The position numbers were made by a program, and so were the translations under genes. This document shows, piece by piece, positions 5,332-29,862 of a stretch of 59,037 bases of DNA. The notes under the pieces are model-generated. The model saw only the letters and a program-made list of their open reading frames with translations. It did not search any database and was not told the origin of the DNA. Origin of the DNA: Polyangiales bacterium (lineage in GTDB: Bacteria; Myxococcota_A; Polyangia; Polyangiales; Polyangiaceae); NCBI GenBank assembly GCA_038324055.1, contig JBBQHO010000001.1, forward strand, positions 1-59,037. The letters run 5' to 3'. Each line of letters begins with the position of its first letter. Positions within the stretch are counted from its first letter, which is position 1.

Positions 5332-7221
5332 TCAGGCGTCGGGCTCGCCGTCGATCACGATCCGGAGCTTGCGAGCCAGCTGGTCGACCGTGAAGGGCTT
5401 CTGGAGGAAATGGACGCCGTCATCGAGTACGCCGCGGTGAGCGATCACATCCGCCGTGTAGCCCGACAAGAACAGGCATTTGAGCTGAGGTCGATCGGTT
5501 TGCAGAATCTTGCAGACTTCTCGTCCCGACATCTGCGGCATGATCACGTCCGTCACCAGCACGTCGATGACGCCGGCGTTCGCCGACAACGCCAGCGCGG
5601 TCTGCGCCGTTCCAGCGGCCAAAACGGTGTAGCCCAGACGCTCGAGCAGCTTCTGTCCCAGACGGAGAAGCGCCTCTTCGTCTTCGACCAGCAAGATGGT
5701 TTCCGTGCCGCGCGGCGGCGTTTGGGTCATGTCGGAGCGGCTCGCCCGCCTGAGTCGCTCGGTACTCTGCGGAAGGTAGATTTTGAAAGTCGTTCCTTGT
5801 CCCAGTTCGCTGTAGACCGTGATGAAGCCCCTATTTTGCTTGACGATACCATAGACGGTCGCCAGGCCGAGCCCTGTGCCGTGACCCACGGCCTTGGTGG
5901 TGAAGAACGGTTCGAAGACGCGCGAAATCGTGTCCTTGTCCATGCCTGCGCCGTTGTCGGTGACGGCGAGCAGCACGAACGGGCCAGCTTCGGCGCCGGG
6001 GTGAGCGCTGACGAAATCCTGATCGAGAACAACGCTGCGGGTCTCGAGAATCAGGGTTCCGACGGAGGCGATTGCGTCACGCGCATTGACTGCCAAATTG
6101 GCCAAAATTTGATCAATCTGCGAAGGGTCGACCTTGACGCGTCCCGCACCGGCTGTCGGCCTCCAAATCAGCTCGACATCTTCGCCGATCAGTCGCCGCA
6201 GCATCTTGAGCATGTTGGTGATGGTGTCGTTCAGGTCGACCACCAGTGGAGCAATCGTCTGCTGGCGAGCGAACGCCAACAGCTGATTGGTCAGGTCCGA
6301 CGAACGCTTGCCGGCCTCGATGATTTGCTCGACGTCCACGCGATGCGCGTCGTCGACCGCCATACCCTGGAGGGTCAGGGCAGCGTTGCCCAGGATGACG
6401 CTCAGCATGTTGTTGAAGTCATGAGCGACGCCACCAGCCAGTCGACCGACGGCATCCATTTTCTGCGCCTGGCGGAGTTGAGCCTCGAGCTTGCGCTCGT
6501 TCTCGTCCTTGACTGACAGCGCGCGATTGGCTTCGAGCAAATTCTGCCGGTCGCTCTCGAGCGTGCGTTGGGCCGCGACCGCGCGTTCGAGGGCCGCTTC
6601 GAGCGAGCGGATGACCGAGCCCAAAGCCAGCGTCAAGAGGACGTTCACCAGAAAAAAGTTGAGCGTGACTACGACCCAACTCGCGAAGCCTCGCAAACCA
6701 TGCGGTTCCACCATCTCCGGCGAAGCGAAGCCGAAATAGCCGACCCCCAACATGGTGACGAAGTTGAGTGCGACGGTCCAAAGCCCGACGCGCAGCCCCA
6801 AAAGCAACGTGGCCAAGAGCGAGAAGGCCAAGAGGTAGATTTGGCTGATCGACCCCACGGAGACCATCAGCCAGGCGCCGAGCGCGTACGTAACCCAGGC
6901 AAGTACAGCCGCCCGCAGGCGGAACGCACCGCGCCGGTCGAAGGACAGATAGATGATCAGCCCGATGGCGATCGTGTCGACGACGATCACGCCTCGAAGG
7001 CGGTAGTGATAGGCGGCGTAAACGCTGGGGATGTAGACCAGACCGCCCAGCACCAGGACGACCCGCAGGATCAGTTCGAGCAGGGAGCTGCGCCAGTGCC
7101 CGGGATCGACGACGCCCCGCGCATCAGTCTCTCCTGCCTTCTTGTCCTTCATTGCCCCGCCACCCGACCTCACCGCCATCCCCCATGGCAGGACGGTGTG
7201 CACGGCGGGGGAGCGTAACAC
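5332..7221 (-). CDS. hybrid sensor histidine kinase / response regulator (multi-TM sensor, HisKA, HATPase_c, C-terminal receiver)
   Basis: Several N-terminal TM helices, an H-box GGVAHDFNNML, G-boxes DNGAGM and GTGLGLATVYG, and a receiver ILLVEDEE...VTDVIMPQMSG...K. The start may instead be MKDKK at 7152. Confidence 0.9.
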   Translation of the reverse strand: MLRSPAVHTVLPWGMAVRSGGGAMKDKKAGETDARGVVDPGHWRSSLLELILRVVLVLGGLVYIPSVYAAYHYRLRGVIVVDTIAIGLIIYLSFDRRGAFRLRAAVLAWVTYALGAWLMVSVGSISQIYLLAFSLLATLLLGLRVGLWTVALNFVTMLGVGYFGFASPEMVEPHGLRGFASWVVVTLNFFLVNVLLTLALGSVIRSLEAALERAVAAQRTLESDRQNLLEANRALSVKDENERKLEAQLRQAQKMDAVGRLAGGVAHDFNNMLSVILGNAALTLQGMAVDDAHRVDVEQIIEAGKRSSDLTNQLLAFARQQTIAPLVVDLNDTITNMLKMLRRLIGEDVELIWRPTAGAGRVKVDPSQIDQILANLAVNARDAIASVGTLILETRSVVLDQDFVSAHPGAEAGPFVLLAVTDNGAGMDKDTISRVFEPFFTTKAVGHGTGLGLATVYGIVKQNRGFITVYSELGQGTTFKIYLPQSTERLRRASRSDMTQTPPRGTETILLVEDEEALLRLGQKLLERLGYTVLAAGTAQTALALSANAGVIDVLVTDVIMPQMSGREVCKILQTDRPQLKCLFLSGYTADVIAHRGVLDDGVHFLQKPFTVDQLARKLRIVIDGEPDA

Positions 7222-7252
7222 GGCTCTTGGCCGTTCGCTTCAGGCAGGTTCC

Positions 7253-10200
7253 TTACTCGGCGGCGACGCGTTCGTGGAGATCGTCGCCAGCCAAGAGAGC
7301 TGTTAGTTCGGCCTCACCCCGATCGACGACCTTCTTCTTGCTGCGGCGCGCGAACCAATCCCCCATGTCATCGACCAGGCTGTGGATGACTGGCACGGCC
7401 AAGAGAGTGAGCAACAAGGAAAGCGTCTGACCGCCGACGACGATGCTGGCCGTTGCCTTGTTGAAGCCGGAACCGATGCCGCTCGACAACAAGAGCGGCG
7501 CCATGCCGGCTACGAAGGCGATGGTCGTCATCAAAATCGGCCGAAGGCGATCGCGGTTGGCGTCCATCAACGATTCGAATCGTCCAAGTCCCATGCGTCG
7601 CAGGTGGATCGTATGATCGACCTGGAGAATGCCATTCTTCTTCACCACACCAAACAAGACCAAGAGACCCAGCATCGAGAACATGTTGATGCTTTGTCCA
7701 AAAATCTTGAGACTGATGAAGGCGAAGGGCACCGTCAACGGTAGCGAAGCCAAGATGATTCCGGGATAGAGCCACGACTCGAACTGGGCCGCCAAGATCA
7801 GGTACATGAAGATGAAGGCCATGCCCAAAGCGAGTGCGAAGCCCGCCGCCAACTGCGACTGCGACTTGGACGAGCCCGTGGGCTGCAAGCGAAAACCGGG
7901 TGGTGGCTTGAGTTCTTCGAACTTCTGCTTGATCAAGTTGCTGACGTCAGTGTCGCCAAACCCCGGGGCCGGGTTGGCCAAAACAGTGATCTGCCTCTCG
8001 CGGCTGTAGCGATTGATGCGCGATGGGCCGATGCCGTCACCCCACTTGACCACCGAACTCAACGGGATGCTGCCGTATTTGCTCGAAGGCACGCTCATCA
8101 GCCCGAGAGAGGAAGGATCGGCGCGGAACTTCTCCTCGGCCCGAATCCGAATTTCGTACTCTTCGCCGCGCTCCGGGAAGGTCGAAGCCTTCACGCCGGC
8201 GACCAACATCTGCAGGGTCGAGGCGACGTTTTGAACGCTGACGCCCAAATCGGCCGCCCGATCGCGATCGATCGTGACCCGCACCTCCGGTCGACCGGGG
8301 ATGTTGGTGGTGTCCACGTCGGACGCCTTGCCGCTTTTGCGCAACGTGTCGGCAATCGCCGCCGCGTTCTTTTCCAGCACTTTGAAATCCGAACCGGAAA
8401 GGATGTACTGCACGCGCTGCGTGTTGCTCCCTACCGCAAAGTCCGGAACTTCGGCGATGTTGATGCGCAGGTTCTTGGGCATCTCGGCCAGGACCAGCGT
8501 GCGCGACTTGGCCATCAGCTCGACCTGCGATAGCTTGCGCGCGCCCGGGTCCTTCAAGTCGATGTAGATTTGGGCATAATTGCGCGTCTTTTGGTCGTCT
8601 TCGCCGACCGTGATGAGCGTGTGCGTCACCTCCGGTAGGCGGTTGACGATGCCGGCTGCGCGCTGAGCGAACAGCAGCGTTTCCTCGGCGCTCGTGCCTT
8701 CGGGCGCACGCATCGTCACCTGAAATTTGGCCTTGTCGTCAAGCGGCAGGAACGAACCCGGAAGCGATTTGGCAACGGGGACGCACGAACCCATGACGCC
8801 CACGCACAACAGCACGATCACCCAGCGCTTCTGCAGCGAGAAGCGCAACGCGCTCATGTACACATGTTCAATCGGCTTGTAGAAGCGATCGACCAGGCGC
8901 GTGAGGAAGTTGGGTTCGGTATGACCGGTCAGCATGCGCGCCGACATCATGGGAGTGAGCGTGAAGCTGACGATCAGCGATACGCCGACCGAAAAGGCCA
9001 TTGTGTAGCCAAAGCTGGCCAAGAAACGGCCGGGGATGCCACCCACGAAGGCCACCGGAATGAACACTGCCATCAGCGAGAGCGAGGTGGCCAGAACGGC
9101 CAGACCGATCTCTTGGGTTGCCAGCACGGCAGCAGGAAACGGCTTCATCTTCTTCTCGTCGATGAAGCGAATGATGTTTTCGAGCACGACGATGGCGTCG
9201 TCGATCACGATGCCGACAGCCAGGGCCAAGGCAAGTAGGGTGATGTTGTTGAGGGTGTAGCCCTGGAGCCACATGATGCCGAACGTACCGATGACGGAAA
9301 TCGGGATCGAAACGGCAGCGATGATGGTGCTCTTGGCATTGCCGAGGAACAGCAGCACCACGGCAGCCGCCAATAGCGCTCCCACGATCAAGTGCTCGGT
9401 AACGGCGTGTACGCTGGTGCGGATGGACTGTGAGTTGTCGCGAACGACGTCCAGCTGCACGCCCTTTGGAAGGCCGGCTTGCACCTCTTTGATGCGCTTG
9501 AAGATATTGTCGACCACCTCGATGGTGTTGGTGCCCGACTGCTTGACGATCGAGAGAACGACCGCTTCTTTGCCATCGTAGCGAGCCAAGCTCTCGACCG
9601 CCTCTTCGCCGTCCACCACGGTGGCGACGTCGGCGAGCCGCAGGATGCGGCCATTGTTCGAGCGCACGACCAAACGACCGACCGAGTCGATTGTGGTCAC
9701 GCGTCCGTCGATGCGCAGGGTCACGCTTTGCGGCCCGGTCGCCAGGTTGCCCCCAGGCGTCATCAGATTTTGCGTCGCCCACGTGTTCATGACGTCAACA
9801 GCCGTGATGCCGGACGCCTGCAACTTGACAGGGTCCATCAGCACGTGGATCTGCCGCTCGCGGCCGCCAATGATCGTCACCTTGCCGACGCCCAAGATGG
9901 TCTCGAGCTGGCGACGGACCTTCTTGTCCGCGATTTCCGAGACTTCGCGTAGACCCAAGCCGGTGCTGCGCAGGCCCAGATAGACGACCGGCGAAGCGCT
10001 CGGCTCGACCTTGCTGATCACCGGCTGCTCGATGCCGATCGGTAGCTCGCGCATCACGGTGTTGATCTTGTCGCGCACTTCTTGCGCGGCGACATTCGTG
10101 TCCTTGTCGAGCTTGAAGCTGATGATGACCTGCGAAACTCCTTCGCTGGAAACAGAGTTCAGGTCGTCGATGCCGGAAATCTGATTGACTGCGCCTTCGA

Positions 10201-10402
10201 TCTTGTCGGTGACGTCGATCTCGACTTCCTCGGGTGCCGCGCCAGGTAGCACCGTGGTCACGACGACGATCGGAATATCGACGTTGGGGAATTGGTCCAC
10301 GCCCAGCTTGCTGTAGCCGACGGTCCCCAGAACCAGGATGACCAGCATCAGCACCGAAGCAAACACCGGCCTTTGTACGCAGATTCGAGCTAACCATTGC
10401 AT
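7253..10402 (-). CDS. RND efflux transporter permease (AcrB/CzcA superfamily)
   Basis: 1049 aa. The N-terminus RPVFASVLMLVILVLGTVGY..L.VDQFPNVD.P.V.V matches the family, as does the 12-TM architecture with two large loops. Confidence 0.95.
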   Translation of the reverse strand: MQWLARICVQRPVFASVLMLVILVLGTVGYSKLGVDQFPNVDIPIVVVTTVLPGAAPEEVEIDVTDKIEGAVNQISGIDDLNSVSSEGVSQVIISFKLDKDTNVAAQEVRDKINTVMRELPIGIEQPVISKVEPSASPVVYLGLRSTGLGLREVSEIADKKVRRQLETILGVGKVTIIGGRERQIHVLMDPVKLQASGITAVDVMNTWATQNLMTPGGNLATGPQSVTLRIDGRVTTIDSVGRLVVRSNNGRILRLADVATVVDGEEAVESLARYDGKEAVVLSIVKQSGTNTIEVVDNIFKRIKEVQAGLPKGVQLDVVRDNSQSIRTSVHAVTEHLIVGALLAAAVVLLFLGNAKSTIIAAVSIPISVIGTFGIMWLQGYTLNNITLLALALAVGIVIDDAIVVLENIIRFIDEKKMKPFPAAVLATQEIGLAVLATSLSLMAVFIPVAFVGGIPGRFLASFGYTMAFSVGVSLIVSFTLTPMMSARMLTGHTEPNFLTRLVDRFYKPIEHVYMSALRFSLQKRWVIVLLCVGVMGSCVPVAKSLPGSFLPLDDKAKFQVTMRAPEGTSAEETLLFAQRAAGIVNRLPEVTHTLITVGEDDQKTRNYAQIYIDLKDPGARKLSQVELMAKSRTLVLAEMPKNLRINIAEVPDFAVGSNTQRVQYILSGSDFKVLEKNAAAIADTLRKSGKASDVDTTNIPGRPEVRVTIDRDRAADLGVSVQNVASTLQMLVAGVKASTFPERGEEYEIRIRAEEKFRADPSSLGLMSVPSSKYGSIPLSSVVKWGDGIGPSRINRYSRERQITVLANPAPGFGDTDVSNLIKQKFEELKPPPGFRLQPTGSSKSQSQLAAGFALALGMAFIFMYLILAAQFESWLYPGIILASLPLTVPFAFISLKIFGQSINMFSMLGLLVLFGVVKKNGILQVDHTIHLRRMGLGRFESLMDANRDRLRPILMTTIAFVAGMAPLLLSSGIGSGFNKATASIVVGGQTLSLLLTLLAVPVIHSLVDDMGDWFARRSKKKVVDRGEAELTALLAGDDLHERVAAE

Positions 10403-10444
10403 GGGATTGTCTTTCGATTGGGGAACGAGTCGGCGGGCCGGCGA

Positions 10445-11521
10445 TCAGTTGGCGCTCTGGCCGTTACTCAGTGTGGGCGAGTAGGTACTGACGACGCGTT
10501 CACCCAGGTTCACGCCCTTGAGAGCGGGAACACGCCCCTGGAACTCCGGTAGCGGCGCCAAGACGCGCTGTACCAGGTGCCCTTCCGCGAGCACGAACAC
10601 GTTGCGTTTGCCGTTCTCGTCGAACACCGCCGCTGTCGGCACCGCGGGAACGGTCTGACTCCCGATGTTCAATTCGATGTCGGCGAACATGCCGGGGAGC
10701 AGCGTCTTGTCGGCGTTCTTGACCAACGCCTCGACCACGAGATCACGCGTGTCGCGCACGGCGCCTGCTATGTAGACCACCTCACCATGAAAGGTTTGCG
10801 CGCCGAAGGCGACCACGTGAAACGACACGTCGGCGCCCTTCTTCACGTCCGATACGTTGGCCTCCGGCACGCTGAACACCAGCCGCAGCTCTTCGACCTG
10901 GGCGAGCGATACGACGCGGGAAGACGACTGCACATACTCGCCTTCTTCGACGTAGCGCTCGGTGACCACACCGCTGAACGGAGCGCGAATCACGCCGTCA
11001 CCGACATTCTTGGCCGCAATGCTCTGACGAGCTTCAGCAGCTTGCAGATTGAGCGGCGCGGTCTTGCACCTGGCAGTGACCTGGTCGTACTCGAGCGCCG
11101 TCACGGCGTCGCGCGCCTTGAGCTGCTCGTAGCGTTCGCAGTCAGCCTGATTGATCTGCTGCTGTGTCTTGCTGGTTTCGACGGCCACGCGCGCTTCGGC
11201 GAGCGAGAGCGCGGCTGCGCGCACGTCGACCTGTGCCAGGATCGCGCCCTGCTTCACCTCGGCGCCGCGTTCGACGTCCGTGCGAGTGATGCGACCAGCG
11301 ACGTTGGCCGCAAGATCGGTTTCTTTGGCTCCGCGCAGCGTACCGGTGACGCGCAACACCCGCGGCGCTTGCACGGCGACGACTTCGGTCGTCTCGACAT
11401 GAACGGGAGCGACGGGCTTTGCCTCCGCAACGGCTTCGGCTTTTTTGCAGCCGGTCGTAGCCAGCGCCAATAGAAAAAACGGAAAGACGAGACCCGAGCG
11501 ACCGAAGGTAGAGATGCGCAT
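10445..11521 (-). CDS. RND efflux periplasmic adaptor (membrane fusion protein, HlyD/AcrA family), lipoprotein
   Basis: Start MRISTFGRSGLVFPFFLLALATTGC includes a lipobox. Coiled-coil and barrel-sandwich pattern (IRAPFSGVV). An alternative ATG at 11581 overlaps the TolC-like stop as ATGA. The 573 aa ORF extension is an overlap artefact. Confidence 0.9.
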   Translation of the reverse strand: MRISTFGRSGLVFPFFLLALATTGCKKAEAVAEAKPVAPVHVETTEVVAVQAPRVLRVTGTLRGAKETDLAANVAGRITRTDVERGAEVKQGAILAQVDVRAAALSLAEARVAVETSKTQQQINQADCERYEQLKARDAVTALEYDQVTARCKTAPLNLQAAEARQSIAAKNVGDGVIRAPFSGVVTERYVEEGEYVQSSSRVVSLAQVEELRLVFSVPEANVSDVKKGADVSFHVVAFGAQTFHGEVVYIAGAVRDTRDLVVEALVKNADKTLLPGMFADIELNIGSQTVPAVPTAAVFDENGKRNVFVLAEGHLVQRVLAPLPEFQGRVPALKGVNLGERVVSTYSPTLSNGQSAN

Positions 11522-11577
11522 GGTGTTCTTGAAAAAGGGTGAGAGGTCGAACCAGAAACGAGGGGACGAGAAAGCGC

Positions 11578-12903
11578 TCATGGCGTGCCTTGCGTGGAAG
11601 CCGACGCACCGGGCGGGGTGCTGTCCAGGGGCCTGCCCGCCGCGGCGCGAAGAGAGAGGCGCGCGAAGACCAGATCGGCGTCGGCCGAGATACGCGCCGC
11701 TCTGGCCTGGAATGCGTCGCGCTGCGCCTGCGTGACGTCGAGCTGGGTAGCGGAGCCAGCTTGGTAGCGCTCGCGTGCGAGATCGGCCGCCTTCTGGGTC
11801 GCGGACTCCTGGACGCGAGCCGACTGGCTCTTGACGATGCCCGTCTCGACACGCTTGTAAGCCTCGAAAACCATATCGGACACACCACGCAATGCTCGCT
11901 GGGCACGAATCGCCTGCACGTCGCTGGCAACGGATTGCGCTTGCGCTGTGGCGTAGGTGCCGTAGTCCAGCTTCCACTGCAGTACGGCCTGGAGCGTGTA
12001 GAACTCGGTGCGACCGATAAAGCCACCAGCATTGGTGAAGCGCTCGTTGGCCATACCCGACAGCGTTGGTAAGAGCGCGGTCGCAGCAGCACGCCTGCCG
12101 GAAGCGGCGGCTTCGTCGAGCCGAGCCTGAACGCGACGGGTCGGCGTGTCCTTCACGCCCAGCCATTCTTGTAGGCTGCCCTCGGTGTGCAGGTCGTCAG
12201 ACGGGAACTCGCCTGCGGCGGCAGTCGGGGCGATGCCGGTGAGGGTCTCCAAGGTTCGAGCAAACAGGTCGCGCATCAGGGCCGCATCGGCCAGTTCTTG
12301 CTTCGAACGCTCGAGATTGGCTTGTGCGCGCTGGTAGTCCAGGTCGAGAGCCACGCCGAGTTCTCGGCGCGTTCCGACGTAGGAGAGGTTCGCCTCGGCC
12401 ATGGCCACGCTTTTCTCTGCTGCTCCAACAAGGGCCGAACCGCCCAGAAACGAGTAGTAGGCGCGCGCGACTGACCGTTGCACATCCTTGCCGGTGAGCT
12501 CCAGCTGCATGTCTGCAGCCGCCGCAACATGCCCCGCCTGGCGGTAGCGGTGGTAGCTCGACACGTCGACGAGTGGCACGTCGAGCTGGAGCAAACCGTC
12601 GAGTTGGTTTTCCGGCGTGATGGTGGCGGTAACCGGCGGTGGGCCGGGAATGGTCACGATGGCGGGATACTGGTTGTGCGTGAACGTGCCGCGGGCGGTG
12701 AAGCTCGGCAGCAGGCGGCCGAGCGCCGCACCCTTCTCCCAATTCCTTTGTTCAGCCGTGGCGGACTGCTCGCGGGAGTCGAAGCTGTGGCTTTGCGCAG
12801 CGGTCAGGAATGTCTCGAGCGGCTGCGTCGCCGAGGCCGAAAGCGGCAACAGCGAAATAGCTAGGATTTTTAATCCTGTACTCAATAAATAGCGATGCTT
12901 CAT
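11578..12903 (-). CDS. TolC-family outer membrane efflux protein
   Basis: Signal peptide MKHRYLLSTGLKILAISLLPLSASA. Two repeats of the OEP-type pattern (L.L..A...A...S......). Confidence 0.85.
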   Translation of the reverse strand: MKHRYLLSTGLKILAISLLPLSASATQPLETFLTAAQSHSFDSREQSATAEQRNWEKGAALGRLLPSFTARGTFTHNQYPAIVTIPGPPPVTATITPENQLDGLLQLDVPLVDVSSYHRYRQAGHVAAAADMQLELTGKDVQRSVARAYYSFLGGSALVGAAEKSVAMAEANLSYVGTRRELGVALDLDYQRAQANLERSKQELADAALMRDLFARTLETLTGIAPTAAAGEFPSDDLHTEGSLQEWLGVKDTPTRRVQARLDEAAASGRRAAATALLPTLSGMANERFTNAGGFIGRTEFYTLQAVLQWKLDYGTYATAQAQSVASDVQAIRAQRALRGVSDMVFEAYKRVETGIVKSQSARVQESATQKAADLARERYQAGSATQLDVTQAQRDAFQARAARISADADLVFARLSLRAAAGRPLDSTPPGASASTQGTP

Positions 12904-12969
12904 GTGTACAACTCTGCTGGAAACTGGACTGCTGCAACGATAGGGGCCGAGTTCGCGGTCAATTAAGGA

Positions 12970-13662
12970 TCAGTTTCGAACCAGGGGATCGCGGCTCGAG
13001 CCCTCTTGCGAAAGAGGAGCCGCGCCGCTCAACAACAGGTCGACCATGCCGCGAATGAACATGCCTTCGGGCATGGTGTTTTCGCCCGCACTGACCGCCA
13101 ACTGGGTCACCCGGAAGTGGTGAATCGCGCCGATGAAGACGCGCGCAACGACTTCGCCGTCCATGCGGCGCATCTGGCCCGCATCCATGCGCCCCTCAAA
13201 ATAGGCCGCAAAACGCAGTAGAAGTCCCCGAAAGGCCAGACGCAGCTCGTTCGACGGCAAGCAACCGCCATGCTCGGGATTCGACCAGGTCATCATCATG
13301 AGTGGCATGACTTCACGACCGATTTCCAACATGGTGGACGCCAAGCGAAGCAGGGCGTCGCGGATCTCCAGCTCCTCGAGACCTTCGAGTGAACTGGCCA
13401 AGCGCTCGGGCACTTTGTTCACGTCGAAGCACATTGCTTCTCGAAACAGCACGTCCTTGGACTTGAAGCGGTGAAATATCGCGCCTTCAGAGACCCCGGC
13501 TCGCTCAGCCACATCGAGCGTGGTGGCCCGAATGCCGCGCTCCAAAAACACCTCCCGCGCTACTTCCAGCAGCTTTTCCCAGTCGATCGTGGGCGGACGT
13601 CCACGCGCGGGGCGCGCGGGCTCGTCAGCTCGACTGGACGAAAAGTTCGGTTTGCGGGGCAC
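12970..13662 (-). CDS. TetR/AcrR family transcriptional regulator
   Basis: HTH region LLEVAREVFLERGIRATTLDVAERAGVSEGAIFHRFKSKDVLF. GTG start at 13662. First gene of the efflux operon. Confidence 0.9.
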   Translation of the reverse strand: MPRKPNFSSSRADEPARPARGRPPTIDWEKLLEVAREVFLERGIRATTLDVAERAGVSEGAIFHRFKSKDVLFREAMCFDVNKVPERLASSLEGLEELEIRDALLRLASTMLEIGREVMPLMMMTWSNPEHGGCLPSNELRLAFRGLLLRFAAYFEGRMDAGQMRRMDGEVVARVFIGAIHHFRVTQLAVSAGENTMPEGMFIRGMVDLLLSGAAPLSQEGSSRDPLVRN

Positions 13663-13668
13663 GCCGCA

Positions 13669-13697
13669 GTTATTGAGTCACGACTTCTGAATGTCAA
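13669..13697 (-). promoter_or_regulatory. candidate sigma70-type promoter of the tetR-efflux operon (near-leaderless)
   Basis: The minus strand reads TTGACA-17 nt-AATAAC-6 nt-GTG(start). The -35 is perfect, the spacing is 17 nt and the -10 is weak. A transcript would start at or next to the start codon. Confidence 0.3.
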
Positions 13698-13713
13698 GGC
13701 GGTAGAGGAAGTA

Positions 13714-14169
13714 ATGACTGGATTTGCTTACACGCCCCCATTGCTTCTCGCCTTAGCGAGTTTGCTTGGCCAGCTCGGCTGTAGCTCGACGAGCGGCGAT
13801 GGAGATGGTTCGGCCGCCGCAACTGCACCCGCGATCAATGCCTGCGCTCCCGAAGACTACGAAGACGCCACTGCCGCCGCGGAATCACGCGTGGTCGACG
13901 TCTCCACGTTGGCCCCTTTCGAGTACACACCAGCGTGTCTGATCATCAAGTCAGGTCAGAGCGTGAAGTTCGAGGGCAACCTCATCACCCACCCGCTCGA
14001 CGCAGGCGCAGCAATCGAAGGCAGCCCCACGAGTCCGATCGTTTCGACGTCGAGCGGATTGAGCATTGAGTTCACCTTTCCGTTGGCCGGCAGCTTTCCC
14101 TACTACTGCGCGGCACATGGGGCACCCGACGGCTCAGGCATGGCCGGCGTCGTTCACGTCGTCGAGTGA
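13714..14169 (+). CDS. cupredoxin (plastocyanin/azurin-like blue copper protein), secreted
   Basis: Signal peptide ending LLGQLGC. Type-1 copper ligand pattern ITHPL ... YYCAAHGAPDGSGM (H, C, H, M). AGAGGAAG Shine-Dalgarno-like sequence 5 nt upstream of ATG 13714. Confidence 0.8.
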   Translation: MTGFAYTPPLLLALASLLGQLGCSSTSGDGDGSAAATAPAINACAPEDYEDATAAAESRVVDVSTLAPFEYTPACLIIKSGQSVKFEGNLITHPLDAGAAIEGSPTSPIVSTSSGLSIEFTFPLAGSFPYYCAAHGAPDGSGMAGVVHVVE

Positions 14170-14222
14170 CTTGTGCGCGCTGAGGTAGCGACGAGCAGCG
14201 CCGCAGCCTTACACTGCGCCCC

Positions 14223-15239
14223 GTGAGCGACTCCCACGACGCCGCACCCGGTCACGCCCACGGGGGCCACGGCCACGGCCACAGTCACGCGCACGGCCAC
14301 GGTCACGCGGGCACGGCACAGCGCACGCTGGGGCTAGCGCTTGCCCTCACGACCGCGTTCTTGGTCGTCGAGGCGTGCGTTGGGTTCTGGAGCGGCAGCC
14401 TTGCTCTCCTGGCAGACGCCGGACACATGCTGGCCGACGCAGCCTCCCTCGGTCTGGCCGTGATCGCGCAACGCTTTGCGGCCCGTCCTCGTACGGCGCA
14501 AAGCACCTTTGGCTTGCGCCGTGCCGAGGTGTTGGCGGCGTTCGTGAACGGCATGACGCTCACCGCTGTCGCTGCACTGATCGTGAAAGAGGCGATTGAA
14601 CGTTGGGTCGAACCGGTCGCCATCGATGCCGTGCCGGTTCTCTGGACCGGTAGTCTGGGCCTGTTGGTCAACCTATTCGTGGCCTGGCTTCTGTCGCGCG
14701 CCGCAACGCAGAACGTCAACGTGCGTGCGGCCATGGCTCACGTTCTCAGCGACGCTTTGGGTTCGGTCGGAGCCATCCTGGCCGGCGCATGCGTGCTCTG
14801 GGCCGACTGGACCCGAGCCGATTCGCTCCTCTCTACGCTGATCGCCATCTTGGTCGCTCGGAGCGGCTACCGCGTGCTGCGCGAGACCTCGACCATCTTG
14901 CTCGAGGGTGCGCCCAAGCACCTCGACGTGAGCGCCATCGAACGCACCATCGGCGATACCCCTGGCGTACTGGACGTCCACGACCTGCACGTGTGGCAAA
15001 TCTCGGAAAACTTCGACGCACTGTCCGCTCACATCGTGATCGAACGCGGCCACCACGGTACCGAGATGTGCCGCCTCGTCGCCGCGCGCCTCAAGCAGGA
15101 CCACCGACTCGAACACGTCACGATCCAACCCGAGCCGCAGCCACCGGACGAAGTGGTGCAGGTGCGTCGGAGCGTGAATGGCGACACTCTCGCCTGCGCT
15201 CAGTCTTCGCCAGGTCGCTCGAGCCCCACCAGCCGGTAG
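14223..15239 (+). CDS. cation diffusion facilitator (CzcD/ZitB-like) metal efflux transporter with His-rich N-terminus
   Basis: N-terminus HAHGGHGHGHSHAHGHGH. TM2 motif LLADAGHMLADA, TM5 motif HVLSDALGS, and a C-terminal domain DVHDLHVW. GTG start. Confidence 0.9.
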   Translation: MSDSHDAAPGHAHGGHGHGHSHAHGHGHAGTAQRTLGLALALTTAFLVVEACVGFWSGSLALLADAGHMLADAASLGLAVIAQRFAARPRTAQSTFGLRRAEVLAAFVNGMTLTAVAALIVKEAIERWVEPVAIDAVPVLWTGSLGLLVNLFVAWLLSRAATQNVNVRAAMAHVLSDALGSVGAILAGACVLWADWTRADSLLSTLIAILVARSGYRVLRETSTILLEGAPKHLDVSAIERTIGDTPGVLDVHDLHVWQISENFDALSAHIVIERGHHGTEMCRLVAARLKQDHRLEHVTIQPEPQPPDEVVQVRRSVNGDTLACAQSSPGRSSPTSR

Positions 15240-16996
15240 CCTGCCTTCGGTCCCAAGTCGTACAGGTGAGCGCGCAAGGGATGAGCGCTGGCGCCGTTGG
15301 CAATCGTCACCACGACATAGCGCGCTGGGTCGTCCGGCCGGACCGCCCCTTCTGGCGCGACGTGGGGAAGGGTCAGGCAAAGGGCACCTTGCGGGGCCGC
15401 CTTCACGTTGAGCGGCCGCGACTGTCCGGCATTGTCGAGCGTGGCGACGTAATGAAAGCTCGCCGCCGGGCGCAGTTCGCGGCGCCGCGCCCAGTCGGTT
15501 CCACAGAGCGAGCTGCCCCCGCGTACTTCCAGTTGAGCGAGCGGCGAGAGCACGAGCAGGTAGCGCTCGAGGATGCGCTGCAGGCGCCCTTGCAAGACGC
15601 GCGTCAAGTAGCTCTTGTGCGGCTCCTCGAACTTTCCGAGCTCGACGAAGGTATCGATATCTGCCCGCTCGAATCGCGCCAGGATGCGGGCCATCCAGGC
15701 GTTGTCGTGCTCGGTCGCGCGACTGAATGCCGGATTCGGGTACTCGTTCTTCCAGCCGTCGGGATCGAAATCGTAGGCGTGGAAGTACCCGAACATCTCT
15801 TCGCCCGGTGTGCGTTCGACCACGTCCCATCGTCGTCGCGGAATACCCAGGGTCACCAGATCCTGGGCGATATCAGCCCAATCGAGCAGATAGCTATGGC
15901 CGAGTCGCCGCGAGATGTCGTCCCAGACCCACTCGCTGCCCAGCGTGTCGCTGAAGTCCAAATAGTAGTGGCGCACGAAGCCTGGCGAGGAGTCTCCATC
16001 GTCGGGATTGGCTGCGATCCAGCTGTCCATCGAGTTCTGCTCGCGAGCATCGAAATGATCGACCCAGGCAGCCAACACGCGCGCTCCGCGGAGTTCGCGC
16101 CGGTCCTGGTGAGGAATGACGTCATTCGGATCGTCGGCGCGCGTGTCCTGATACGAAAACGGCCCAAGCAGATTGCCCTCGAGCCAAGCGCTGGCCTGCA
16201 TGCGCACCAGATCGCCTTTGCGTAGGCCGTTGTCGACGATTCTCTGCAGAGCCGCTTCGTCCAGTGGCTTGATTACGCCGCTGTTGTCAGTCGTCGTCAG
16301 GCCCGGCTTGAGCTTGAGAACCTTCGGATCGAAGTAGACGACTTGCTCGCACGAGGTGTTGAAACCCACCGCGTTGTAGATGGCCGCACCGATCACCGCG
16401 GCGGCGGAGCTCTTCGGACTCTTGTCGGACTTGAGCATGTACTTCTTGCCGCCGATCCGAACCCGAAAACCGGGAGTCGAGCCGTCGCTCTTGCCCTTGT
16501 CGACCAGCCAACTGGCGGTCTCGGCATTCTCGGGGTCGAGCATGTCCTCGGGCTCGCAGGCGCCGAGCGCCAGGGCCGCGGCACGTTCGGCGCCTTCTTT
16601 GCTCGGGCGGTTGGTGAACCAGGCGCTGTCGGGGACTTCGTCGAGAGCGTTGACGTTGACGGCCGCGCCTGGCGGATCGACCTTCCAGAAGCGCGAAAAC
16701 GGCAAGAAGATCGAATTGTCGACCGCGTCCCAGGCGAGCGGCGAGACGTAGGGCTCCGGGGTGCATGACTTCTCTTCCGCGGACTCACCATCGTTGCGCT
16801 GACAATTGGCCTGGTAGGCGCGCATGTCCGTGTCGACGAGCAGCGGAGCGCGCAGCGGAAAGCGCGGAGGCTCGGACGCACAGGCAGCCAGTAGACAAGT
16901 CGCGGCAGCAGCGGCAGCAGCCGCCGCCAGTCGTGGAGAGAGCCGCCCCGCGAGTACGGCTGAGCACCAACCGAAGCGATGGCGATTAGAAGTCAT
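15200..16996 (-). CDS. cassette A: ~598 aa lipoprotein with a putative protein-kinase-like core; paralog of 29863..31638
   Basis: The start at 16996 gives a poly-Ala signal peptide ending LLAAC (lipobox). Blocks shared with the paralog: RFPL, NVNALDEVPDSAWFTNR, DDPNDVIPHQDRRELR, WVDHFDAREQN, LDFSD, GYRLVGLERP. Confidence 0.8.
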   Translation of the reverse strand: MTSNRHRFGWCSAVLAGRLSPRLAAAAAAAAATCLLAACASEPPRFPLRAPLLVDTDMRAYQANCQRNDGESAEEKSCTPEPYVSPLAWDAVDNSIFLPFSRFWKVDPPGAAVNVNALDEVPDSAWFTNRPSKEGAERAAALALGACEPEDMLDPENAETASWLVDKGKSDGSTPGFRVRIGGKKYMLKSDKSPKSSAAAVIGAAIYNAVGFNTSCEQVVYFDPKVLKLKPGLTTTDNSGVIKPLDEAALQRIVDNGLRKGDLVRMQASAWLEGNLLGPFSYQDTRADDPNDVIPHQDRRELRGARVLAAWVDHFDAREQNSMDSWIAANPDDGDSSPGFVRHYYLDFSDTLGSEWVWDDISRRLGHSYLLDWADIAQDLVTLGIPRRRWDVVERTPGEEMFGYFHAYDFDPDGWKNEYPNPAFSRATEHDNAWMARILARFERADIDTFVELGKFEEPHKSYLTRVLQGRLQRILERYLLVLSPLAQLEVRGGSSLCGTDWARRRELRPAASFHYVATLDNAGQSRPLNVKAAPQGALCLTLPHVAPEGAVRPDDPARYVVVTIANGASAHPLRAHLYDLGPKAGYRLVGLERPGED

Positions 16997-18335
16997 ACGA
17001 CGACCCGATGGTGAGGCGCACGGAGTCGATCTGACCTCCAGTCTCGAAAGGATTGGACCCAAAGCCTAGAACTGCCTGGAACTCGGACTCGCCCGTGGTG
17101 CGGCTCTGAATCGCGAACGCCGCAGAATAGCGCAGCAAGCCTGGCCGAAATTCAGCTAGATGCTTGTCAAACACGTTGCCCATCTCGAAACGCAAGCTGC
17201 CGTCGAGCCAGACCCAGATGGGCCAGCGATAGGTCAGGCTGAGCGCCGCCGCGCTCCGACCGACCAGACGTCCAGCGTAAAAACCGACGAGCGCGTCGCT
17301 GTCGCCACCCAGCGCCACCAGCTCCGTGAACGGCACGACGGAGTTGCCGACTTCATCCACGAAGCGAGCGCCCGCAGCGAGCGACAACACGCGATGGTGG
17401 CCGTCCAAGTCCACGAAACCGCCCGCGATGCCTCCGTAGCGCACCCAGCTGCCCTGATTCTCGAGGTCAGCCGAATGTCGCAGATTTGCCTGCAGACGTA
17501 CTCCCGACGCGGGACGCTCCGGATTGCGCGTGTCGAGCACTAGACGCAATTCCGAGCGCGCTTCGGTGTAGCCGCGATCGATCAGCGCTGGCAGCGGAAC
17601 GCTCCCCGCGGCCAGCGCATTTTGCAGCGAAGGATCATCGGCGTCGCCCAGGCCTGGGCGGAAATTCACGTCGCGGAGCGCGACCTGCGCATTGAAGGTG
17701 CTCATGCGCCAGAAGCGATGATCAACCACGGCCCGCGCCTGCAACGTCTGCATGCCGTAGCGGAGCGCGTCACTTTGTCGCGTCAGCGGACCGGTCCCAA
17801 AATAGAGGTAGTCCGGTCGTCGCAGTAGCGAGACGTCCCAGCCGATACGATCAAGCGGGGTGTTGGAGTAGCGGTAGCGCTCCGCCGCGCCCAGCGAGAT
17901 CCAGTTGTTCCCGGAAAACGAAGCGCGTGCTCGCAAGTCGTGACCGCGAAAGCCTGCATCATCCCAGAAGGCGTACAGACCGAAGCTGGGTTGAAAGCCC
18001 GAGTCTGCGAAAACCGTCGGAAAAACGCCGGCTTTGTGATCCGGACCAAAAGCAAAGAAGTCGTAGAGCAACGCCGGCACGCCAGCTTGCTCCGCCCCCG
18101 AGATCAGCTTGCCCAGCGGCCAGCGAATCCCGTACTCAGTGACGACGTAGACGGGGAACAGGAGCACGCGCGGTATCCACAGCAACTTGCGGCCCGTGCT
18201 GTCGGGCAGTTCGCGACCGTCGTAGTCGGGCAGCTCGCGCTTCTCGACCGCGCGCGCCCGCGCAGATCCAAGTAGCGTCGCCGCCAAAACACACAGGCCC
18301 AGTGCTCGGCCGATTCCGTCACGATACTTGCGCAT
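16986..18335 (-). CDS. cassette A: Omp85/surface-antigen-type outer membrane beta-barrel without recognisable POTRA; paralog of 28169..29860
   Basis: Start MRKYRDGIGRALGLCVLAATLLGSARARA is a signal peptide. KRELPDYDGRE and WIPRVLLFPVYVVTEYGIRWP are shared with the paralog. Alternating-hydrophobic strands end in ...LTIGSSYDF, with a terminal Phe beta-signal. The stop overlaps the lipoprotein start by 11 nt. Confidence 0.8.
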   Translation of the reverse strand: MRKYRDGIGRALGLCVLAATLLGSARARAVEKRELPDYDGRELPDSTGRKLLWIPRVLLFPVYVVTEYGIRWPLGKLISGAEQAGVPALLYDFFAFGPDHKAGVFPTVFADSGFQPSFGLYAFWDDAGFRGHDLRARASFSGNNWISLGAAERYRYSNTPLDRIGWDVSLLRRPDYLYFGTGPLTRQSDALRYGMQTLQARAVVDHRFWRMSTFNAQVALRDVNFRPGLGDADDPSLQNALAAGSVPLPALIDRGYTEARSELRLVLDTRNPERPASGVRLQANLRHSADLENQGSWVRYGGIAGGFVDLDGHHRVLSLAAGARFVDEVGNSVVPFTELVALGGDSDALVGFYAGRLVGRSAAALSLTYRWPIWVWLDGSLRFEMGNVFDKHLAEFRPGLLRYSAAFAIQSRTTGESEFQAVLGFGSNPFETGGQIDSVRLTIGSSYDF

Positions 18336-18623: not shown

Positions 18624-20264
18624 GTGGTGAGTTCGAGCGCGGCGCGCGCCCGCGACAGCGCTGCGTCCCCCACGCAGCTGGCGCAGCTGGCGATGGCTCC
18701 CGGTTTTCGCAAGCTTCTGCACTACCATGGGACCCTCTTCGGCGGGCTCGAAAGCCAAGTCGACGACCCGAGCTTTTTTCTGGCCGCGACCGGTGCGACG
18801 GATCCAGAAGCGGAGCTTTCCGCGCTCGTCCGCGCCATGCGAGAGCCAGCGTCGAACAAGCCGAACGAAGATGTTCGCTGCCGTTTTCCCGCGCGTGTGG
18901 CTTGGCTCGCCGAACAAATGCCGCTACCTGCGCACGCTCCAGCCAACTGCCCCGAACAAAGCGCTTTCTTGCAGCGCGTGCAGGCCGACAGTTTGTCGCT
19001 GGTTTACGCGTCGAGCTCGCTCGACTACCCCGCGTCCGCTCTGGGTCACACTTTCTTGCTGCTGCGACCGCGTGACGCCTCCGCGGAGCAGGGTACTTCG
19101 ATTGACTACCGCGCGCGCGTCGACACGAAGAACCCCCTGCTCTACGCGTTCAAAGGTTTGACGGGCTTGTTCGTCGGTCGCTTCGAAATTTTGCCGGAAG
19201 AAAAGAAGCTGTGGAACTTGCTCGAAGAGCAAAAGAGAGACCTGTGGGAGTTCGAGCTCTCGCTGAGCCCGAGTGAGCTCCAGCTGTTTCTGCTGCACCT
19301 GTGGGAACTGTCGCGCGCGGAGATCGACTACTTCTACTTGACCGAGAACTGCAGCTACCATGCGCTCGAAGCGCTCGAAGCCGCTGCTCCTCGGCTTTCG
19401 CTCGTCGAGCAGACCAAGTTCGTCGTCCTGCCCATCGACACCGTGCATGCGGTCGTGCGCGCGCCCGGCCTGGTCAAGCGAACCAACTACTTCCCCTCCA
19501 GAACGACGCGCAAACGCGACACCGACCCAGGCGAAACCGTGCCCGCGCCGCTCCAACCGGCCTTTCCACGGCCGCTGCGCTCCCCCGCTCACAGCCACGG
19601 GCCGATGCGCGTGAATTTCGGCACCGGGCTCAGCTCAGAAAAGGGTGCATTCGGCAGCCTCGGCTTCCGCCTCACGCTCCACGACCTGCTCGATCCCCCG
19701 CAAGGCAACCCCGAACTCGTGCAGGTCCAGTTGCTCAGCATGACCGTGCGCTACTCGCCTTTGCCCAGCAGCTTCACGGTCGACGACGTGACTTTCGTCG
19801 ATCTATGGGCGCTCAACACGCTCGACTCCCCGTCGCCGTTGGCGTGGCGCATCCGCGCGCTTGGCAACCGTGTCCGAGACCGCAGCTGCCCGTCGGGCGA
19901 CTGCTTCGTCCACGGCCTCGACTTCGGCCTAGGTACCGCAGTGGCCACGCGCAGTCGCTCACTCGCACTTTTCGCCATGGCTACTAGCTCAGTCGTCTTC
20001 TCGGACGCCATCTCGGGCATCGATGGCAGCTTCGTTCGTTGGACCGCTGGGCCCCAACTCGGGCTACGGGCACGCCTGGGTTCGCGCTCCGTCGCGCTGA
20101 TCAGCGGTCGCTGGAGCTATCTGCCTTGGCAATCTGTCGAAACGACATTCGATCTGACGGGACAGGTGCGCGCCGGCTTGTCGAGCGACGTCGCGCTGGG
20201 TGTCGAAGGCCGCGTTCAACCGAGCGCCTACGAAGCCAGCCTCTCGTCGTTCGTCTACTTCTGA
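18624..20264 (+). CDS. DUF4105 (Lnb N-terminal domain-like) protein with beta-barrel-like C-terminal half
   Basis: Contains GHTFLLL and YFYLTENCSYH, remembered as DUF4105 signatures. C-terminal alternating strands end in SSFVYF. The frame is open upstream to 18516 and encodes a signal-peptide-like LRAWLLPCVALFTSVVSSSAARA with no ATG/GTG/TTG, so the true start is uncertain. Confidence 0.8.
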   Translation: MVSSSAARARDSAASPTQLAQLAMAPGFRKLLHYHGTLFGGLESQVDDPSFFLAATGATDPEAELSALVRAMREPASNKPNEDVRCRFPARVAWLAEQMPLPAHAPANCPEQSAFLQRVQADSLSLVYASSSLDYPASALGHTFLLLRPRDASAEQGTSIDYRARVDTKNPLLYAFKGLTGLFVGRFEILPEEKKLWNLLEEQKRDLWEFELSLSPSELQLFLLHLWELSRAEIDYFYLTENCSYHALEALEAAAPRLSLVEQTKFVVLPIDTVHAVVRAPGLVKRTNYFPSRTTRKRDTDPGETVPAPLQPAFPRPLRSPAHSHGPMRVNFGTGLSSEKGAFGSLGFRLTLHDLLDPPQGNPELVQVQLLSMTVRYSPLPSSFTVDDVTFVDLWALNTLDSPSPLAWRIRALGNRVRDRSCPSGDCFVHGLDFGLGTAVATRSRSLALFAMATSSVVFSDAISGIDGSFVRWTAGPQLGLRARLGSRSVALISGRWSYLPWQSVETTFDLTGQVRAGLSSDVALGVEGRVQPSAYEASLSSFVYF

Positions 20265-26315: not shown

Positions 26316-27158
26316 TCAGTCCGTCGCCCAGAGCCAGCGCATGCTGACTTCGAGCACGTCCCCGCCGATGCGGCCCAGAAAATCTGGACTGCTCACCACA
26401 GGCAAGATGCTGGTGCGCACCTGGAACTCGTCGGACAAGAGCCAGCGCACGTGCAACCCTGCCCGCACGATGCCGACCTGGCGCTCTGCGAGCCAGACGA
26501 TTTCAACGGTGGGCGACACGCCGATGTTGGTCCCACGAAGGAAGAACTCGACGCCGAGCCGTTGGCGGAGAGTGAGTCCGGAACCGATCACCACCGCCAT
26601 CGTGTCGAGATAGAGGTTGTTGTCCTCCGGAAATCCGAAGGCGACGATCGGCTGCGTCTCCGAACGCAACTTGAGCGGCCCCAGCGGCAGGTAGAGTTCG
26701 AGTTGGCTGTCCCACAGCCAGTATTGGGCGCGCGGACCTTCGAGGATGTCGATGTCGCGGCGCGTGTAGCTGTCCTTGGCCGTCAAGTACGAACGATTGA
26801 ACGAGAACTGGTAGAGCGCGCCCGAGCGGAGCTCGAACAAGCCGCGCTCGATCCGGCCGCCCATGTAGCCGCCCAGGGCGCTGGTCGAAAGGATGGGTAC
26901 AGCGTCCAGACCGACCCATTCGTAGTGCGGCTTGCCCCAGCCCGCCGAGATGCGTGGGCGCAGAAAGAAAAAACCTGCGTCGAGGCGAGAAGCGACGAAC
27001 CAGCGATCGGTCGAGTTTCGCCAACGGCTGCCCGGCGGGGAGCCGAGCGGGTTGTCCGCAGAGTCACCGGGGCCCGTCGACAGGCCTTGAGCGTGCGCGG
27101 GCATCGACACGAGCAAGACGAATACAAGGACCGAAATCCACGAGAGCAGCGCCCGCAT
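26316..27158 (-). CDS. secreted beta-barrel-like outer membrane protein (280 aa)
   Basis: Start MRALLSWISVLVFVLLVSMPAHAQG is a signal peptide. Alternating amphipathic strands follow. Its ATG shares 1 nt with the PAP2 stop (TGATG). The upstream part of the 399 aa ORF is an overlap artefact. Confidence 0.7.
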   Translation of the reverse strand: MRALLSWISVLVFVLLVSMPAHAQGLSTGPGDSADNPLGSPPGSRWRNSTDRWFVASRLDAGFFFLRPRISAGWGKPHYEWVGLDAVPILSTSALGGYMGGRIERGLFELRSGALYQFSFNRSYLTAKDSYTRRDIDILEGPRAQYWLWDSQLELYLPLGPLKLRSETQPIVAFGFPEDNNLYLDTMAVVIGSGLTLRQRLGVEFFLRGTNIGVSPTVEIVWLAERQVGIVRAGLHVRWLLSDEFQVRTSILPVVSSPDFLGRIGGDVLEVSMRWLWATD

Positions 27159-28147: not shown

Positions 28148-28168
28148 GAGGAATGAAACCTGAGATGG

Positions 28169-29860: not shown

Positions 29861-29862
29861 GC

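Follow-up and report, generated by a model that had tools for sequence, protein, structure and literature searches.

A conserved two-gene module pairs a POTRA-less Omp85 barrel with a kinase-like exported protein and is linked to NTT-type nucleotide carriers

Introduction

What is the role of an outer membrane barrel that is encoded, twice in the same genome, immediately upstream of a large lipoprotein matching no characterised family? This question is raised by a stretch of 59,037 nucleotides from a Polyangiales bacterium (Myxococcota_A; GenBank assembly GCA_038324055.1, contig JBBQHO010000001.1, positions 1 to 59,037), the whole of which is referred to here as the window. An initial reading of the window, made from its letters and open reading frames alone (the sequence-only reading), recognized two barrel-lipoprotein gene pairs, designated here cassettes A and B, and proposed that the barrel, an Omp85-type protein without POTRA domains, is a dedicated partner that may export or anchor the lipoprotein. 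We found that the genes for an Omp85 barrel and for a kinase-like exported protein occur and are inherited together, and that they are tied to nucleotide carriers of the NTT type. The pair is a two-gene module present in at least seven bacterial phyla, and an ancient duplication gave rise to the two copies of it in the window, cassettes A and B.

Two paralogous cassettes in one window

The features of the two cassettes are listed below (aa, amino acids; nt, nucleotides; residue numbers are those of the encoded protein).

16986..18335, minus strand: barrel A, 449 aa, with a signal peptide, about 50 aa of N-terminal helices, 16 strands and the C-terminus ...SSYDF
15200..16996, minus strand: lipoprotein A, 598 aa, with lipobox Cys39, a kinase-like core and a C-terminal Ig-like sandwich (about 486-593); its segments are the N-terminal conserved RFPL ... 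NVNALDEVPDSAWFTNR and the core K189, H314-x-D316-x4-N321 and D347
16986..16996, minus strand: overlap of the barrel A stop and the lipoprotein A start, 11 nt, sequence ATGACTTCTAA
28169..29860, plus strand: barrel B, 563 aa, a paralogous POTRA-less Omp85
29863..31638, plus strand: lipoprotein B, 591 aa, a paralogue of lipoprotein A

The coordinates, gene pairs, 11-nt overlap, signal peptide, lipobox, SSYDF end and shared motifs described in the sequence-only reading were all confirmed in the sequence. The longest open reading frame of barrel A extends to 18401, and the ATG at 18335 yields a typical signal peptide, MRKYRDGIGRALGLCVLAATLLGSARARA. Barrel A terminates in ...TIGSSYDF and barrel B in ...VSRGF. 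The ATG of lipoprotein A sits within the final codons of barrel A (tcgtATGacttcTAA), and the resulting overlap of exactly 11 nt is consistent with translational coupling of the two genes. Lipoprotein A has the lipobox LLAAC followed by ASEPPRFPL, and lipoprotein B has the lipobox FSLAC. The recurrence of the same gene order at 28169..31638 was also borne out: cassette B is arranged as cassette A, with a 2-nt gap (TGAgcATG) separating barrel B from lipoprotein B.

Barrels A and B are 30% identical over 438 aa (E 8e-38), and lipoproteins A and B are 37% identical over 597 aa (E 1e-107). The motifs found in both barrels (KRELP[DN]YDGRE and WIPRV.L.P.Y....YGIR.P) and in both lipoproteins (RFPL, NVNALDEVP.S.WF.NR, DDPNDV.PH.DRRELR, W..H.DAREQN and GYRLVG.ERP) therefore reflect true paralogy and not chance. 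Between its signal peptide and KRELPNYDGRE, barrel B has a Pro/Glu/Ala-rich low-complexity linker of about 100 residues (28169..28580), which was not seen in barrel A or in most homologues.

The barrel and the lipoprotein are paired across phyla

The arrangement extends well beyond this genome. For 67 Polyangia-type genome loci with enough upstream sequence, the barrel gene is directly upstream of the lipoprotein gene and on the same strand in 45, and elsewhere in the locus in 2. Among metagenome loci of a distant clade, the barrel is directly upstream in 52 of 58, and Pfam-labelled neighbourhoods repeat the barrel-then-lipoprotein order in Bacteroidota, Gemmatimonadota, Latescibacteria and a Calditrichia-related contig. 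Co-occurrence in other genomes, which the sequence-only reading had put forward as a check, is thus found in both sets of loci. Its description of the pair as strictly syntenic was too strong, because 20 of the 67 Polyangia-type lipoprotein genes are without a barrel within 6 kb. Of 55 Polyangia-type loci, 36 have a junction of exactly -11 nt between the two genes and 52 have one within 20 nt; the latter holds for 42 of 61 distant loci.

The two proteins have also diverged together. Barrel and lipoprotein distance matrices are correlated (Mantel r 0.79), a value reached by 0 of 2000 permutations, and in genomes with two pairs, the nearest relatives of a barrel and of its own lipoprotein lie in other genomes, often at one shared locus. 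Together, these two results indicate that the pairs were duplicated as units long ago and diverged together thereafter. A dedicated barrel-lipoprotein partnership, as originally proposed, is well supported: in several phyla the two genes lie side by side on one strand, they are tightly or translationally coupled, and they have been duplicated together and have diverged in step. A pair is also carried by the cultured strain Labilithrix luteola DSM 27648 (L076).

A Calditrichia-related locus (L088, 5489..11743) encodes two barrel plus kinase-like pairs in tandem followed by one NTT gene, with another Omp85 gene upstream; pair duplication is therefore not peculiar to the window genome. Solo lipoprotein genes were found in Sorangium sp. 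So ce1389 (L002, CP150364.1), where the gene adjoins those for methylmalonyl-CoA mutase and MeaB, and in 19 other loci (e.g., L005, L006 and L009). Two apparent fusions were encountered in metagenomes, one joining the lipoprotein family domain to an Omp85 barrel (P0276, 1000 aa) and the other joining it to PAP2 (P0287, 837 aa). They were not accepted as proof of interaction, as read-through of tandem genes such as those of L088 could create them.

The barrel is a POTRA-less Omp85 protein

An AlphaFold2 (AF2) model of barrel A, built from 33 sequences, has 16 strands and a mean predicted local distance difference test (pLDDT) score of 85.4. Foldseek comparison of the model with the PDB returned 115 matches at E ≤ 0.001, the best at 1.2e-10; all 50 of the listed matches are BamA/TamA barrels (E 1e-10 to 1e-7), with the BamA-RcsF complex at the top. 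No POTRA domain was found by Pfam matching or in the AF2 model, in which three helices (residues 47-94) immediately precede strand 1. Because helices 47-94 are all that stands ahead of strand 1, the modelled protein is assigned to the noNterm class of Omp85 proteins defined by Heinz and Lithgow in 2014 (PMC4104836), and on this model the barrel is a genuine POTRA-less Omp85. The 16-stranded, POTRA-less fold anticipated by the sequence-only reading has accordingly held up.

Family assignment by direct profile matching is weaker. Neither window barrel matches any Pfam family at E ≤ 0.1, and Pfam and NCBIfam scans of the four window proteins gave nothing other than a single sub-threshold NCBIfam match of barrel B to Omp85_fam (22.8 bits against a cutoff of 200). 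A search for barrel homologues found 913, and PF01103 is carried by most of the 120 listed, as it is by most homologues at 45-53% identity; some are annotated as BamA/TamA family. Membership of the window barrels in the Omp85 superfamily (PF01103) holds by transitivity through these homologues and by fold. An L6-loop consensus, PMRGF...GRL, and an F-x-E-x-G-N wall motif are conserved across phyla in the barrel family. In both window barrels, the L6 motif is degenerate, being LVGF in A and MKSF in B; the Arg of RGF is present in 20 of 33 homologues. The last residue is Phe in 30 of 33, i.e., a C-terminal aromatic beta-signal.

The partner is a large uncurated family with a kinase-like signature

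The lipoprotein family is very large. A family search recovered 2008 homologues among 8000 scored candidates, and 4773 when a distant member was the query; an exhaustive profile search gave 3139 representative clusters at 50% identity. Members occur in Polyangiaceae, Labilithrix, Sorangium and Minicystis, and also in Calditrichia, KSB1, Nitrospirota, Latescibacteria, Bacteroidota and Gemmatimonadetes. There is no curated model for the family: the listed members are all named "hypothetical protein" and come without a precomputed Pfam domain. No recurrent family emerged when 50 members were scanned against NCBIfam, an exact-sequence look-up of lipoprotein B found no record, and single-protein PDB sequence searches returned no meaningful match. 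The sequence-only reading, which could not place the lipoprotein in a characterised family, had overlooked a conserved kinase-like catalytic signature.

Conservation was counted in an alignment of 50 diverse members (27-48% identity), with residues numbered as in lipoprotein A. K189 is kept in 48 of 50 sequences, D316 in 48, N321 in 48, D347 in 49, F348 in 41 and G349 in 39. Five residues are fully invariant (D289, R299, R300, R303 and H343), and a Gly-rich hairpin (K169, G172 and G176) is near-invariant. The consensus motifs are Y-x-L-K-x-D (containing K189), N-H-x-D-x-R-x-x-N (D316 and N321) and I-D-F-G-D (D347). In terms of its sequence motifs, this is the Lys, catalytic Asp-x4-Asn and DFG constellation of protein-kinase-like enzymes.

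Structural and profile comparisons point in the same direction. The AF2 model of lipoprotein A (pLDDT 69.7, pTM 0.72) matches CtkA of Helicobacter pylori in the PDB with a Foldseek E of 0.024, a probability of 0.96 and a target-normalised TM score of 0.47-0.50; the other PDB matches are the MavQ lipid kinase, AmiN, IRAK4 and HPK1. Among viral models, the matches include several Ser/Thr kinases and one protein with a PI3K/PI4K domain. CtkA is also the first match in a PDB profile search with the family (E 0.19). The only Pfam families that match more than one of the 50 members are HipA_2 (6 of 50, best E 7.9e-4) and HipA_C (2 of 50), and the HipA_2 matches consistently align residues about 133-229 to profile positions 5-84. 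When the family was aligned by hhalign to a Ser/Thr kinase from a related locus, H314-x-D316-x4-N321 fell on HRDLKPDN and D347 on DFG, with an E of 0.065, or 0.0098 with a two-sequence profile. A PDB search with a broader family profile (A3) gave solely an Ig-like IgA-receptor match.

Several observations tell against an enzymatic reading of the lipoprotein. The catalytic region, residues 274-372, is modelled at pLDDT below 50. The individually listed HipA matches score 11.7-13.7 bits against a cutoff of 27, and neither window lipoprotein has a HipA-family Pfam match. The hhalign probability for the kinase alignment is at most 4%, and the family profile could not be aligned by hhalign to E. 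coli HipA or to an APH. Both window lipoproteins are missing an αC-like Glu, which 29 of 32 close homologues and 37 of 50 diverse ones have. Each kinase assignment, taken alone, falls short of significance. Membership of the HipA family was rejected, since all scores are sub-threshold and E. coli HipA does not align. We nonetheless consider that the lipoprotein is probably kinase-like and related to HipA_2/CtkA; the poor model over 274-372, the failure to align with HipA and the weak individual scores are the reasons for the cautious label "kinase-like" in place of a family assignment. The absent Glu belongs to a P-E-R motif that follows the beta3 Lys (residues about 193-195), at which lipoprotein A has an additional 3-residue deletion, and its loss might mean that the copies in this genome have altered or lost activity.

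Just three viral-model matches of lipoprotein A reach E ≤ 0.001. All are large proteins of phages or other viruses (774-1479 aa; E 1e-5 to 1e-4), and two of them are uncharacterised proteins of the Gordonia phages Sixama and GodonK; all three may share an unnamed domain with the lipoprotein.

Outside the core, the AF2 model and Foldseek identify the C-terminal region (about 486-593) as an Ig-like sandwich. The N-terminal segment, residues 40-130, is modelled at low confidence despite its strong cross-phylum conservation (P-V-K-x-F-D-x-D-N ... NVNALDEVPNSSWYTNR). Of the 50 sequences, 28 have both C147 and C216, 22 have neither, and none has just one of the two; C65 and C78 are likewise kept or lost together. 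These coupled Cys pairs fit the pattern expected of disulfides in an exported protein. The term lipoprotein, as used in the sequence-only reading, is apt for A and B and for 44 of the 50 diverse members, in which the lipobox Cys is present by alignment. It does not extend to all distant homologues, of which about half (55 of 117) have the strict lipobox pattern, and in some homologues a plain signal peptide takes the place of the lipobox (e.g., P0493 and P0529). As read from these signals, the product of the second gene is Sec-exported and usually lipidated.

A wider cluster with nucleotide carriers surrounds cassette B

Cassette B is flanked on one side by two putative carrier genes and on the other by genes for a PAP2-family protein and a secreted protein.

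31721..33127, minus strand: NTT/TLC-type nucleotide carrier (MFS), Pfam TLC E 7.4e-16, part of the conserved cluster around cassette B
33313..36276, plus strand: NTT-HEAT fusion carrier, a TLC/MFS domain with C-terminal HEAT repeats, Pfam TLC E 1.1e-9
27158..28330, minus strand: PAP2-family membrane phosphatase or phosphotransferase, Pfam PAP2 E 5e-11, likely start near 28159, divergent from barrel B
26316..27158, minus strand: 280-aa secreted protein without a known family; its start codon shares 1 nt with the stop codon of PAP2 (TGATG)

The pair itself was correctly described as a two-gene unit by the sequence-only reading, which had overlooked this larger NTT/NTT-HEAT/PAP2 cluster. Judged by their PF03219 matches and homology to ATP/ADP carriers, the products of 31721..33127 and 33313..36276 qualify as NTT/TLC transporters. 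The NTT carrier is 55% identical to the carrier of a Latescibacteria cluster, and it matches the solved ADP,ATP carrier protein 1 (PDB 9j3n) with an E of 2.7e-8. The two carrier genes are divergently oriented and follow directly after cassette B.

Carrier genes accompany the module in other genomes as well. An NTT-like gene is present in 35 of 80 Polyangia loci, and in 26 of 45 barrel-linked versus 2 of 20 solo loci; NTT-HEAT fusions were counted in 23 Polyangia loci and also occur in other phyla. Of 56 distant-clade loci, 45 contain an NTT gene, which in 36 directly follows the lipoprotein gene; a gene for a cyclic nucleotide (cNMP)-binding protein is present in 21 of 34. Outside the Polyangia, the typical order is Omp85, kinase-like protein, NTT, NTT-HEAT, cNMP-binding protein, response regulator(s) and PAS histidine kinase. 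Unlike most loci of other phyla, the window has no cNMP-binding gene beside its NTT genes. PAP2 is found in 16 of 80 Polyangia loci versus 2 of 80 distant loci. The duo of PAP2 and the 280-aa secreted protein recurs in Polyangia clusters (e.g., L084 and L085) and hardly ever elsewhere, and homologues of the secreted protein lie between PAP2 and Omp85 in other clusters.

The full cluster context belongs to cassette B, and cassette A stands alone as an extra pair. Homologues from other phyla are closer to lipoprotein B than to lipoprotein A, and for this reason cassette B looks ancestral and complete. Cassette A looks, from its sequence, like an extra pair of a Polyangia-specific lineage with a Cys-containing insert.

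NTT-HEAT fusions, with or without a cNBD domain, are described as widespread in free-living bacteria and functionally uncharacterised in Major et al. 2017 (PMC5381601). A literature search found neither later functional work on these fusions nor a description of the barrel/lipoprotein/NTT cluster. As far as could be found, the partner family, its kinase-like signature and its cross-phylum linkage to NTT and NTT-HEAT carriers are undescribed.

Genes around cassette A

The 3' ends of lipoprotein A and of a convergent gene for a His-rich CDF transporter (14223..15239) overlap by 40 nt (15200..15239), and an identical convergent overlap occurs in a 90%-identical metagenome contig (L003). As candidate members of the module, the TetR regulator, a cupredoxin-like open reading frame, an Lnb_N protein and a sugar transferase near cassette A were rejected, having no counterpart in 83 related loci; the CDF transporter was rejected because its only match among those loci is the same 90%-identical contig. 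The Lnb_N protein (18624..20264, plus strand, divergent from barrel A; 546 aa) contains Lnb_N, DUF7840 and DUF7843 domains and ends in ...SSFVYF; given the lack of counterparts, it is probably outside the module.

Upstream of cassette A (5332..15239) is an efflux and regulatory block that includes a MASE11 hybrid histidine kinase, an AcrB-type RND pump (7253..10402), a membrane-fusion protein (MFP; 10445..12166), the TetR regulator (12970..13662) and the CDF transporter. RND/MFP/OEP sets also adjoin the module in Bacteroidota (L086), Gemmatimonadota and Calditrichia-related (L088) loci, and this could be either a recurrent association or a coincidence.

A nucleotide-dependent enzyme at the outer membrane, and other explanations

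What, then, might the module do? Our composite reading, which we hold tentatively and would place slightly below an even chance, is that of a nucleotide-dependent enzyme docked at the outer membrane and supplied by NTT carriers. Its first component, in which we have moderate confidence, is that the exported protein comprises an atypical kinase-like core of the HipA_2/CtkA type and an Ig-like domain, and that it is folded and active outside the cytoplasm. The further steps are held with lower confidence. Barrel and enzyme may form a 1:1 complex in the outer membrane, with the barrel serving to dock the enzyme or to display it on the cell surface, perhaps via the conserved N-terminal segment of about 90 residues. 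The enzyme might catalyse a nucleotide-dependent transfer, the simplest being phosphorylation, onto an envelope protein or lipid. Carriers of the NTT type in the inner membrane would supply it by moving cytosolic ATP out and periplasmic ADP in; this direction is suggested because NTTs are antiporters by family and ATP is abundant in the cytosol and absent outside. PAP2 enzymes as a family face the periplasm, and PAP2, where it is present (Polyangia), might reverse or process the phosphorylated product. A more specific version, in which cyclic-nucleotide-gated NTT and NTT-HEAT carriers export ATP for a kinase on the POTRA-less Omp85 that phosphorylates envelope or surface targets, with a dedicated energy supply, is on the unlikely side, if still to be taken seriously.

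Besides the weaknesses of the kinase assignment given above, the genomic distribution and what is known of NTTs and periplasmic enzymes weigh against the composite. To our knowledge, no ATP-dependent periplasmic kinase has been established in bacteria. Neither the barrel nor the NTT link is obligatory, since no barrel lies within 6 kb in 20 of 67 Polyangia-type loci and 11 of 56 distant loci have no NTT gene. Moreover, every NTT that has been characterised imports nucleotides, according to PMC5381601. That direction of transport would suit nucleotide scavenging, in which the outer membrane pair captures or admits extracellular nucleotides from lysed prey or the turnover of extracellular DNA, the NTTs import them, and the kinase-fold protein would serve, by analogy with SusD on SusC, as a nucleotide-binding receptor on the barrel. 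The homology of the window carrier to an ADP,ATP carrier, the conserved order of Omp85, lipoprotein, NTT and NTT-HEAT genes, and the fact that a kinase fold is a nucleotide-binding fold are all in keeping with scavenging. We nevertheless judge it improbable: at least 48 of 50 sequences retain the catalytic Asp, the DFG-like Asp and the Asn, a degree of conservation for which mere binding gives no need, Omp85 barrels are not known as solute channels, and the PAP2 partner and PAP2 fusion are left unexplained. Regulation by cNMP and two-component proteins is neutral with respect to this explanation.

The near-invariance of catalytic-type residues is equally unaccounted for if the barrel is purely a dedicated translocon or assembly factor that brings its cognate lipoprotein, be it an adhesin, a structural protein or a sensor, to the surface, and the NTT neighbourhood is regulatory or incidental. 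Such a role in export or anchoring would agree with the tight coupling and co-divergence of the pair, with the C-terminal Ig-like domain, with the conserved but poorly modelled N-terminal segment as a possible targeting signal, and with the precedent of Leptospira, where noNterm Omp85 genes are followed by lipoprotein genes (PMC11358297). The NTT linkage across phyla is left unexplained, and the lack of an adjacent barrel for the 20 solo homologues and the existence of homologues that are not lipoproteins also make such a role, in our estimation, quite improbable. We assign an equally low likelihood to outer membrane lipid remodelling, whereby the kinase-like protein is a lipid kinase resembling phosphatidylinositol kinases or MavQ, PAP2 opposes it and the barrel positions it. 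In its favour, MavQ and a PI3K/PI4K-domain protein are among the fold matches. PAP2 is a repeated neighbour in Polyangia clusters, and P0287 combines it with the family domain in one protein. The Bacteroidota locus has a gene for phosphatidylserine decarboxylase just upstream, and the invariant R299, R300 and R303 could bind anionic head groups. However, PAP2 is nearly absent outside the Polyangia and hence is not part of the core module, and the lipid-kinase fold matches are no better than the protein-kinase ones. Lipid remodelling would still require a supply of nucleotide, and so it is largely a sub-case of the composite reading.

A very large, unannotated exported family gains a testable hypothesis for its fold and active site, and a defined partner. 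The cluster hints at an undescribed nucleotide-dependent activity outside the cytoplasm. PMC5381601 leaves open the role of NTT and NTT-HEAT carriers in free-living bacteria, and the linkage described here offers a functional context for them. Should the more specific version, with cyclic-nucleotide-gated carriers, be true, it would entail ATP-dependent phosphorylation outside the bacterial cytoplasm and provide a first function for the NTT-HEAT transporters of free-living bacteria; and if the carriers do feed the enzyme, the textbook view of a periplasm without ATP-driven chemistry would need revision.

Comparison with known systems

The sequence-only reading had likened the cassettes to TpsB/TpsA, Slam and BamA-lipoprotein systems, and each of these models was rejected because it fails on a defining feature. 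As in TpsB/TpsA systems (e.g., FhaC/FHA), a barrel of the Omp85 superfamily is encoded beside a single dedicated partner, and the conserved N-terminal region of the partner is a possible recognition signal. However, TpsB has two POTRA domains and TpsA has a beta-helical TPS domain, and neither is found here (there is no Pfam match, and the lipoprotein is modelled as an alpha/beta core and an Ig-like sandwich); gene order and lipidation of the partner also differ. BamA-RcsF, LptD-LptE and Slam resemble the cassettes in that an outer membrane barrel has a cognate lipoprotein. BamA has five POTRA domains, LptD has 26 strands and Slam has a DUF560 barrel, all unlike the barrel described here, for which no DUF560 or TPR match was found and whose fold is that of a 16-stranded Omp85. 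The lipoproteins of those systems act as small plugs or sensors or as nutrient receptors, whereas the partner here is about 600 aa long and has an enzyme-like core.

Of the enzymes with named folds, CtkA and HipA_2 (PF20613) share with the lipoprotein family the Lys, the Dx4N motif and the Mg-binding Asp; CtkA is the best named fold match, and no Pfam families other than HipA_2 and HipA_C gave recurrent signals. The H. pylori CtkA protein also acts outside the producing cell. Unlike HipA-like kinases (PF07804 and PF20613), the proteins described here have a lipobox, an Omp85 partner, and additional conserved N-terminal and Ig-like C-terminal regions. The NTT-HEAT(-cNBD) proteins of PMC5381601 are comparable to the carriers of the module, where the neighbouring genes are NTT-HEAT followed by a cNMP-binding gene; the available portion of that paper makes no mention of Omp85 or of a kinase-like partner.

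A close parallel to the barrels is provided by the noNterm Omp85 paralogues of Leptospira (PMC4104836 and PMC11358297), which are likewise 16-stranded POTRA-less barrels with a lipoprotein gene directly downstream, occur as several paralogous copies per genome and, like the barrels here, have no known function. The barrel described here differs in having a conserved helical N-terminal segment of about 50 aa, and linkage to NTT carriers is unreported for the Leptospira proteins. The partners in Leptospira are DUF1566 and Big/integrin proteins, which are unrelated to the kinase-like partner. An arrangement of one barrel and one downstream lipoprotein is already known in Leptospira (PMC11358297), with unrelated partners, and the module described here is a second and far more widespread case of one barrel with one partner, which argues that POTRA-less Omp85 proteins as a class work with dedicated clients or partners.

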